64,000 nucleotides of DNA from Escherichia coli (GTDB taxonomy: Bacteria > Pseudomonadota > Gammaproteobacteria > Enterobacterales > Enterobacteriaceae). Of this stretch, positions 24,949 through 24,985 are shown piece after piece. How positions within the stretch are numbered: the first letter of the stretch is position 1; every line of letters begins with the position of its first letter. The position numbers and the translations under genes were made by a program. The stretch lies in NCBI RefSeq assembly GCF_003334815.1, contig NZ_QOWO01000020.1; one strand, given 5' to 3'. A model generated the notes under the pieces. The model was not told the DNA's origin and did not search any database. It was given only the letters and a program-made list of their open reading frames with translations.

Positions 24949-24985
24949 CTGTGAAAACTGTGATGAAAATCTGTGATTCAAACAG
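24949..24985. promoter_or_regulatory. three direct CTGTGA repeats, candidate DeoR-type operator upstream of ydjF
   Basis: CTGTGAaaaCTGTGAtgaaaatCTGTGAttcaaacag, 75-110 bp upstream of the ydjF start. Confidence 0.3.

Follow-up and report, generated by a model that had tools for sequence, protein, structure and literature searches.

A candidate YdjF operator array and an overlapping CRP box in the ydjG-ydjF spacer of Escherichia coli

Results

Three CTGTGA copies lie upstream of the ydjF promoter

The present analysis concerns the spacer between ydjG and ydjF in a 64,000-nt stretch of Escherichia coli DNA (contig NZ_QOWO01000020.1; the whole stretch is referred to as the window), in which the hexamer CTGTGA occurs three times upstream of ydjF, a gene for a DeoR/GlpR-family regulator at the tail of the ydjLKJIHG catabolic operon. 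The genes, the three copies and the predicted promoter, in window coordinates, are as follows.

23942-24922, + strand: ydjG, an open reading frame annotated thus in RefSeq E. coli genomes
24949-24954, + strand: CTGTGA copy 1, an exact match; CTGTG is conserved, the last A is E. coli-specific (CTGTGT in most other genera)
24958-24963, + strand: CTGTGA copy 2, an exact match; E. coli-specific, forming the left half of a CRP box
24971-24976, + strand: CTGTGA copy 3, an exact match; positions 3-8 of a proximal 17-bp operator-like element
24992-25020, + strand: sigma-70 promoter of ydjF found by sequence scan, with TTGAAA (24992-24997), a 17-nt spacer, GATAAT (25015-25020) and TG before the -10 hexamer
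25059-25817, + strand: ydjF, DeoR/GlpR-family regulator, a 252-residue open reading frame with a GTG start at 25059 (RefSeq annotation)

A preliminary description made from the letters of the window had reported three CTGTGA copies with 9- and 13-nt spacing upstream of the ydjF GTG, and we confirm them as exact matches at 24949, 24958 and 24971, the spacings being start-to-start and the distances to the GTG running from 110 to 83 bp. The promoter hexamers match the sigma-70 consensus at 10 of 12 positions and place the predicted start at about 25027, relative to which copies 1, 2 and 3 lie at about -78, -69 and -56. The gene is listed with the same hexamers in the catalogue of constitutive promoters obtained with RpoD holoenzyme by genomic SELEX (systematic evolution of ligands by exponential enrichment; PMC3946193).

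Over the window as a whole CTGTGA is not enriched (16 occurrences observed, 23.6 expected), so that three copies within 28 bp are unusual for this word, the expectation for this hexamer being about 8e-5. When the window was simulated with a first-order Markov model, 21% of the runs held a triple of some hexamer within 28 bp (on average 0.26 triples per window); the actual window contains two, the second being formed by TGATAT at 29053-29073. By itself the repeat count has modest statistical weight and is suggestive, not decisive; it is conservation that carries the case.

Among complete E. coli genomes the ydjG-ydjF spacer is present in 4330 of 5426, and the region 24700-25300 is missing altogether from the other 1096. 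In strain CUPF09 (NZ_CP182142.1) an IS1A element in the ydjG/ydjF region splits the match to 24700-25300 in two. Seven sampled E. coli spacer variants carry single-nucleotide polymorphisms at 24928, 24987, 24989, 25007/8, 25022 and 25023, all of them outside the CTGTGA copies and the promoter hexamers. TGTGA occurs a fourth time at about +3 of the predicted ydjF transcript, in an Escherichia-genus-specific element (25029-25039) whose sequence, TGTGATGTAAA, agrees in 10 of 11 positions with that of copy 2, TGTGATGAAAA, which is 70 bp away.

Copies 1 and 3 are part of conserved blocks; copy 2 is specific to E. coli

The comparison set comprised 30 related loci overall. A genome scan gave 22 enterobacterial loci with YdjF orthologues at 77-97% identity, about 20 of which keep the full ydjLKJIHGFE gene order. 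Alignment of their spacers resolved four conserved blocks, namely ACCTCTGTTTCTGTGTAAAA, AAATCTGTGATTCAGACATGTTnTTTTGAAAATAAACAT, the -10 region and GGAAACAGAGGTG at the ribosome-binding site. Copy 3 is located in the strongest of these blocks; copy 1 keeps CTGTG, followed in most genera of the 22 spacers by T; and copy 2 falls into a variable AT-rich gap of constant length (14 bp) and is present in E. coli only. The blocks that hold copies 1 and 3 are nearly invariant across genera, with variable spacer DNA on their flanks. Around copy 1 the conserved unit is the following.

24947-24953, + strand: distal half-site TTCTGTG, conserved, 22 bp upstream of the proximal operator-like element; its expected right half is variable

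Could the triple be a chance cluster in AT-rich intergenic DNA, functionless beyond the promoter? Such a reading can draw on the frequency of hexamer triples in the simulations (21% of windows) and on copy 2 and the last A of copy 1 being recent substitutions of the E. coli lineage, yet we consider it very improbable, given the near-invariant blocks around copies 1 and 3 amid variable flanks, the recurrence of the copy-3 element as the top match of a position weight matrix (PWM) in independent lineages, and the CRP binding at the copy 2/3 box reported in the published SELEX table, both described below.

In Klebsiella michiganensis ydjK (4622-5239) is only a partial match, which suggests truncation, and its spacer (around 9900-10000) has CTGCTA in the copy-3 element and an altered -10 region, which would fit a joint decay of cluster and control region.

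A 17-bp imperfect palindrome is common to the ydjF and ydjL promoters

The block that contains copy 3 extends over 17 bp, and a PWM of this 17-mer, trained on enterobacterial sites only, was run over both strands of the window (127,968 positions). It points to the following elements.

24969-24985, + strand: proximal operator-like imperfect palindrome ATCTGTGATTCAAACAG (consensus ATCTGTGnnnCACAGAT), containing copy 3; conserved in at least 20 enterobacterial loci
18489-18505, + strand: operator-like element ATCTGTGTTTTACAGAT of the ydjL promoter; 22.6 bits, rank 2; 23 bp upstream of the -35 hexamer TTGACC (18512-18517)
18468-18484, - strand: second, inverted 17-mer ATCTGCGTTTTACAACT in the ydjL promoter; 13.9 bits, rank 6; 21 bp from the first

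The ydjF element at 24969 ranks first with 23.6 bits, begins 23 bp upstream of the -35 hexamer and occupies about -58 to -42; the frame of copy 2 scores 7.8 bits. When the two promoters are aligned without gaps on their -35 hexamers, both carry ATCTGTGwTTyArAsAT exactly 23 bp upstream, and the 17-column profile score anchored in this way is in the top 0.02% of all window pairs. The word TCTGTGWTT occurs three times in the 64 kb, each time in ydj regulatory DNA; with at most one mismatch, 4 of 25 matches fall within the 267 bp of ydj regulatory DNA where 0.10 would be expected, and related patterns are 10- to 40-fold enriched there, all of these patterns having been picked after inspection of the data.

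In the ydjL promoter (18447-18525) half-sites alternate in orientation at 10-11 bp spacing (GCAGAT at 18479-84, ATCTGT at 18489-94, ACAGAT at 18500-05), and the upstream region is strongly conserved from TATTTGTGATC (18455-18465), which reaches no more than 1.75 bits as a CRP site, to the -10 hexamer. Between the ydjF and ydjL promoters the left arms align at a fixed offset, and the right arms are degenerate in the ydjF promoter. We favor a palindrome over a direct-repeat model because the corresponding site in Enterobacillus is a perfect palindrome (see below), and the letters of such a half-site array can take the choice no further.

Several other candidates in this DNA were set aside. TGTGATCTGAGTTGTA at the ydjL promoter, considered as a conserved CRP site, scores 1.75 bits and has no entry in the part of Table S3 of the CRP genomic-SELEX study (PMC3105977) that the analysis covered. 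The sequence TTTGTGATC of the same promoter is strongly conserved and is not accounted for by CRP. PhoB boxes (11-bp direct CTGTCAT repeats), LexA (CTGT-N8-ACAG), FadR, IHF and Cra were compared by eye through their consensus sequences, and spacings or key bases misfit. PWM matches such as ATCTGTGGTTCAGAT inside ydjL/ydjJ homologues were treated as false positives because they lie in coding sequence that reads Ile-Cys-Gly-Ser-Asp. Downstream of the ydjL promoter, an inverted TCTGTGTTT (18562-18570, - strand) overlaps the ydjL Shine-Dalgarno region AAACACAGAGGA, 72 bp from the promoter operator, and could be a downstream operator or a second anti-Shine-Dalgarno arrangement.

The element accompanies the ydj cluster into distant lineages

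A protein search extended the comparison to YdjF orthologues at 58-76% identity and found the same ydj cluster on contigs of Agarivorans, of ctg13025c, of Enterobacillus and of the Clostridia Caproiciproducens and Anaerostipes, together with one orphan copy and partial loci. The order ydjLKJIHG-ydjF is intact in Agarivorans, Enterobacillus, Caproiciproducens and Anaerostipes, which suggests that the cluster has been transferred horizontally in one piece; in both Clostridia the cluster has an additional gene for ribulose-phosphate 3-epimerase.

Run over each of these loci (15-21 kb, both strands, about 41,500 positions), the PWM had its top match in the DNA upstream of ydjL or ydjF in five lineages, namely Agarivorans, ctg13025c, Anaerostipes, Serratia and Enterobacillus. 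All of the first three ranks of Agarivorans fall in this upstream DNA, and the rank-1 match of Enterobacillus, ATCTGTGTTTCACAGAT, is perfectly palindromic and lies 23 bp upstream of its -35 hexamer, TTGACT. The ydjL promoter of ctg13025c has a ydjF-type version of the site, ATCTGTTATTCGGACAT, and the ydjF and ydjL versions are therefore interchangeable. The spacing of the repeats recurs as well, with 22 bp from CTGTG to CTGTG in the ydjF promoter of ctg13025c and 21 bp from ATCTGTG to ATCTGTA in the ydjL promoter of Anaerostipes. In Caproiciproducens an ATCTGTG lies within the spacer between -35 and -10, and in Anaerostipes an inverted copy lies over the -35 hexamer.

The CRP box is confined to E. 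coli

Copy 2 and the first bases of copy 3 form the following box.

24959-24974, + strand: CRP box TGTGATGAAAATCTGT, centered at 24966.5

This box is already on record. In Table S3 of Shimada et al. 2011 (PMC3105977) the ydjF<-<ydjG spacer appears among the novel targets of CRP genomic SELEX, with the box ACAGATTTTCATCACA, the reverse complement of TGTGATGAAAATCTGT, and the Chip and DB columns of its row are blank. With a PWM built from the 149 other boxes of the same table, the box scores 8.3 bits, which puts it at rank 30 of 63,985 window positions and at the 26th percentile of the training sites. It has the form TGTGA-N6-TCTGT, with 7 of 10 core matches and a weak right half. A CRP site built on copy 1 scores 2.6 bits and one built on copy 3 scores -1.7 bits, so that about 95% of the training sites do better, and on these scores and the conservation pattern we rejected both copies as CRP sites. 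At the orthologous position E. whittamii has a CRP-like score of only 5.0 and Escherichia sp. E1V33 one of 2.5, and the scan found no CRP site at the copy 2/3 position in the 20 other loci outside Escherichia.

At class I CRP-dependent promoters CRP is centered at -61.5, as at lac. The ydjF box would resemble this arrangement in its position if the predicted start is right, its center then lying at about -60.5/-61.5, and it is listed in the SELEX table; unlike class I boxes it has a weak right half and is missing from other genera. Judged by these sequences, the ancestral control did not include the published CRP box, which was added recently and in E. coli only.

A more radical possibility is that all three TGTGA are CRP half-sites, in tandem or overlapping, and that the spacer holds a pure catabolite-control element without a YdjF-specific operator. 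TGTGA is indeed a CRP half-site, there is a CRP genomic-SELEX peak in the spacer, and the copy 2/3 site ranks among the best 30 of the window. Against this reading, which we regard as very improbable, stand the low scores at copies 1 and 3, the conserved columns that reach beyond TGTGA (ATCTGTGATTCAnACA) without a TCACA partner, the ydjL version, which has TGTGT, and the confinement of the sole reasonable CRP site to E. coli. Moreover, the conserved element is also found in the clostridial Anaerostipes cluster, and Clostridia are not known for E. coli-type cAMP-CRP control.

In Citrobacter and Yokenella a good CRP-like box, TGCGAAGGGGTTCACG (about 10 bits), lies some 186-198 bp upstream of ydjL and has no counterpart in E. 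coli.

A long-range helix may sequester the ydjF ribosome-binding site

On RNA that reads through from ydjG, the start of the spacer can pair with the translation start of ydjF.

24931-24949, + strand: 5' arm CACGATTCACCTCTGTTTC, just after the ydjG stop codon and upstream of the ydjF promoter, with the C of copy 1 as its final base
25041-25061, + strand: 3' arm GATACAGGGGTGTAATCGTG, containing the ydjF Shine-Dalgarno sequence and GTG start codon

The pairing spans about 100 nt and encloses a loop of about 90 nt that holds the ydjF promoter and operators. In a 23-species alignment 94.5% of cells pair, compared with 43-59% when the partner is slid, and all 11 one-sided changes in the arms are G.U-compatible. 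RNAalifold predicts the helix independently, and for read-through RNA of E. coli the predicted folding energy is -44.8 kcal/mol (z = -4.3). For the initial 45 nt that follow the ydjG stop, paired with the Shine-Dalgarno/start window, the duplex has a predicted energy of -27.3 kcal/mol in E. coli, against -10.3 +/- 2.4 for shuffled sequences, and 11 of 12 proteobacterial lineages show it at a significant level (P <= 0.005). It is likewise significant in a Neobacillus metagenome-assembled genome with different arm sequences (UUUCCCCAUU and AAUGGGGAAG), and the arms of ctg13025c read CCUCC/GGAGG; Enterobacillus and three Clostridia gave no significance in the shuffle test. Although the arm sequences differ, the arrangement persists from Enterobacteriaceae to Agarivorans and to a Bacillales metagenome-assembled genome. 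In silico, the ydjF Shine-Dalgarno sequence is unpaired with a probability of 0.54 when the transcript starts at the ydjF promoter, and of 0.01 when the RNA reads through from ydjG.

A sequence scan found no terminator-like site between ydjG and ydjF, and no Rfam family matches 24700-25300. An inverted-repeat search finds nothing at the helix, to which it is blind because of the G.U pairs and a bulge. We dropped a second helix that would extend the pairing (UGUAAA/UUUGCA), as it is broken in several lineages and in E. coli.

The 5' arm raises the question of whether copy 1 is conserved as RNA, as part of an anti-Shine-Dalgarno helix, and not as a site for DNA binding, in which case the operator would be copy 3 only. 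The arm, in the form ACCTCTGTTTC, ends on the C of copy 1; Agarivorans keeps the arm and loses the CTGTG of copy 1; and the 17-mer PWM fails at 24947. However, TGTGTAAAA, which follows on the right of the arm, is conserved as well without being explained by the pairing, the candidate second helix being broken in several lineages, and ctg13025c, in which the arm sequence is different, still has CTGTG exactly 22 bp upstream of its proximal site. We therefore hold this explanation to be possible and rather doubtful.

Discussion

A proposed composite of two regulatory layers

We favor, at a probability of roughly 60%, a model in which the CTGTGA triple is a composite of a conserved, GlpR-like array of YdjF operators and an E. 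coli-specific weak CRP site. As a triple it is an E. coli-specific coincidence of these two regulatory layers. In the first and conserved layer, YdjF would bind the 17-bp palindrome ATCTGTGnnnCACAGAT upstream of the -35 hexamer in both ydj promoters, with further full or half sites at intervals of about 21 bp on the same face of the DNA, and the copy-1 half-site, 22 bp or two helical turns upstream, would be one of these. A YdjF oligomer might bind cooperatively along this face, as GlpR does on tandem operators, and YdjF would in this way control its own promoter and the ydjLKJIHG catabolic operon, most likely as a repressor that is released by a pathway intermediate. In the second layer, found in E. 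coli only, substitutions would have created copy 2 and with it the weak class I CRP site TGTGATGAAAATCTGT near -61. The CRP box overlaps the left edge of the proposed YdjF operator, and CRP and YdjF may therefore compete. What the sequences show in this picture is the elements themselves, how far they are conserved and that they are particular to ydj promoters; the binding of CRP and of RpoD holoenzyme to the spacer comes from published in vitro screens, and YdjF as the bound protein, like the direction of its action, is inferred.

The idea of the preliminary description that the repeats are an autoregulatory DeoR-type operator is thus supported by the comparison of sequences for copies 1 and 3, which lie in conserved blocks 22 bp apart, the copy-3 element recurring in the ydjL promoter and in distant ydj clusters. 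Its assumption of three equal CTGTGA repeats has to be given up, copy 2 being absent outside E. coli and the conserved unit being the 17-bp imperfect palindrome ATCTGTGnnnCACAGAT; and its alternative, TGTGA as CRP half-sites, holds for the copy 2/3 box TGTGATGAAAATCTGT listed in the SELEX table and fails for copies 1 and 3 (2.6 and -1.7 bits). The CRP box and the ydjF promoter are already published, and the predicted YdjF operator is of an ordinary kind, a local operator of the DeoR/GlpR family.

YdjF is the most economical candidate for the binding protein because ydjF is the only regulator gene syntenic with the cluster in all lineages compared and because the element is also present in a clostridial cluster. 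The protein has an HTH_DeoR domain (PF08220, E = 7e-17, residues 6-60) and a DeoRC domain (PF00455, E = 3e-49, residues 77-233). Its ETIRRDLEKLE segment is invariant in YdjF orthologues and is a family-wide DeoR signature, and we have not used it as evidence of a shared DNA target. No YdjF operator has been described so far in the literature searched. As to the direction of control, we consider repression most likely, because RpoD holoenzyme alone selects the ydjF promoter, because the ydjL promoter is active in the mouse gut but not in culture (PMC6561318), as would be expected of an inducible operon under a repressor, and because the element overlaps the -35 hexamer or the promoter spacer in the two Clostridia.

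It is also conceivable that the 17-mer is bound by a factor other than YdjF, or that YdjF acts there as an activator, as FucR. The site at -58 to -42, just upstream of the -35 hexamer, is in a typical activator position, and the -10 hexamer of the ydjL promoter (AAGTAT) is weak. Furthermore, GATTCAG in the ydjF operators outside E. coli resembles one half of the Cra palindrome. This Cra-like half is missing in the ydjL version, however, and the element stays with the ydj cluster in different phyla, in which ydjF alone among the regulator genes keeps its synteny. An activator is not strictly needed at the ydjF promoter because RpoD holoenzyme alone selects it in vitro (PMC3946193), and the placement in Caproiciproducens (within the -35/-10 spacer) and Anaerostipes (an inverted copy over the -35 hexamer) is repressor-like. 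On balance we find a different factor, or activation by YdjF, unlikely.

Several observations weigh against YdjF-mediated repression through an operator array combined with a class I CRP site. In being located upstream of the -35 hexamer, the main operator is where one would expect an activator to bind more than a simple steric repressor, so that YdjF may instead activate, and overlap with the -35 hexamer of ydjL rests on weak matches such as the 17-mer at 18509-18525 (6.4 bits). In E. coli the ydjF operator has a degenerate right half (4 of 7), and the PWM gives -9.1 in the frame of copy 1 (24947), so that copy 1 is a half-site only. When the profiles of the ydjF and ydjL promoters are compared without anchoring, the similarity is marginal (P 0.035-0.075), and the enrichment patterns were chosen post hoc. 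The PWM scan of three Firmicute loci, those of Caproiciproducens, Vallitaleaceae and the Neobacillus metagenome-assembled genome, found no clear 17-mer motif. The position of the CRP box near -61 is uncertain by a few base pairs because the ydjF start is predicted and not mapped. Finally, the literature searched, in which YdjF is an uncharacterized DeoR-family factor, holds no YdjF binding or expression data.

Relation to known systems

GlpR, a member of the DeoR/GlpR family, acts on tandem operators in the E. coli glp regulon. Similarly, YdjF is a DeoR/GlpR-type protein encoded with a sugar-catabolic cluster, and the predicted ydj operators are imperfect palindromes that recur after some two helical turns (21-22 bp), beside promoters and overlapping them. 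By analogy, the inducer would probably be a phosphorylated pathway intermediate that binds the DeoRC domain. In contrast to the GlpR consensus, the ydj half-site is ATCTGTG, and the main ydj site lies upstream of the -35 hexamer and not over the -10 hexamer or the start. A second parallel is provided by the motifs predicted for the DeoR-family regulator RhaR, which consist of two direct repeats whose periodicity is 10-11 bp (Rodionova et al. 2013, PMC3870299). The ydj motif is likewise a comparative-genomics prediction for a local DeoR-family regulon with imperfect repeats of helical periodicity, and differs from the direct repeats of RhaR in that its unit is a 17-bp imperfect palindrome repeated at 21-22 bp.

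The ydj operon next to YdjF is induced in the mouse gut (PMC6561318), and a predicted operator makes its regulation testable. The prediction of ATCTGTGnnnCACAGAT at 24969-24985 and 18489-18505 would provide a handle on the natural inducer and hence on the natural substrate of the ydj pathway.

A possible insulated autoregulatory module

Placing operators and promoter within the loop of the long-range helix would make the ydjG-ydjF spacer a compact, insulated autoregulatory module, in which ydjF is silent on read-through mRNA from ydjLKJIHG and translated only from its own transcripts. We put this forward tentatively, with somewhat less than even confidence. Transcripts from the ydjF promoter start inside the loop and therefore would escape the helix and make the regulator; if this is true, the dosage of the regulator is uncoupled from induction of the operon. 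An alternative reading of the helix is translational coupling of ydjF to termination at ydjG.

Fold-back inhibition of transposase translation on read-through transcripts is said to have been described for IS10/Tn10 by Davis, Simons and Kleckner in 1985. The predicted ydjF arrangement would resemble it in that sequence upstream of the promoter pairs with the ribosome-binding site, leaving transcripts from outside silent and native ones translatable. Unlike the IS10 transposase, ydjF is a regulator gene at the tail of a catabolic operon, and its loop of about 90 nt contains the promoter and operators. Should the helix form in vivo, it would provide a chromosomal instance of read-through silencing of the IS10 type.

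Other observations in the window

Two further observations concern sites elsewhere in the window. The best match to the CRP PWM is TGTGATTTTCATCACG at 17350-17365 (17.2 bits), which is the msrB<>gapA CRP box of Table S3 of Shimada et al. 2011. The TGATAT triple, TGATATTGATATGAATGATAT (29053-29073), directly adjoins a CAT (ATG on the - strand) at 29051-29053.

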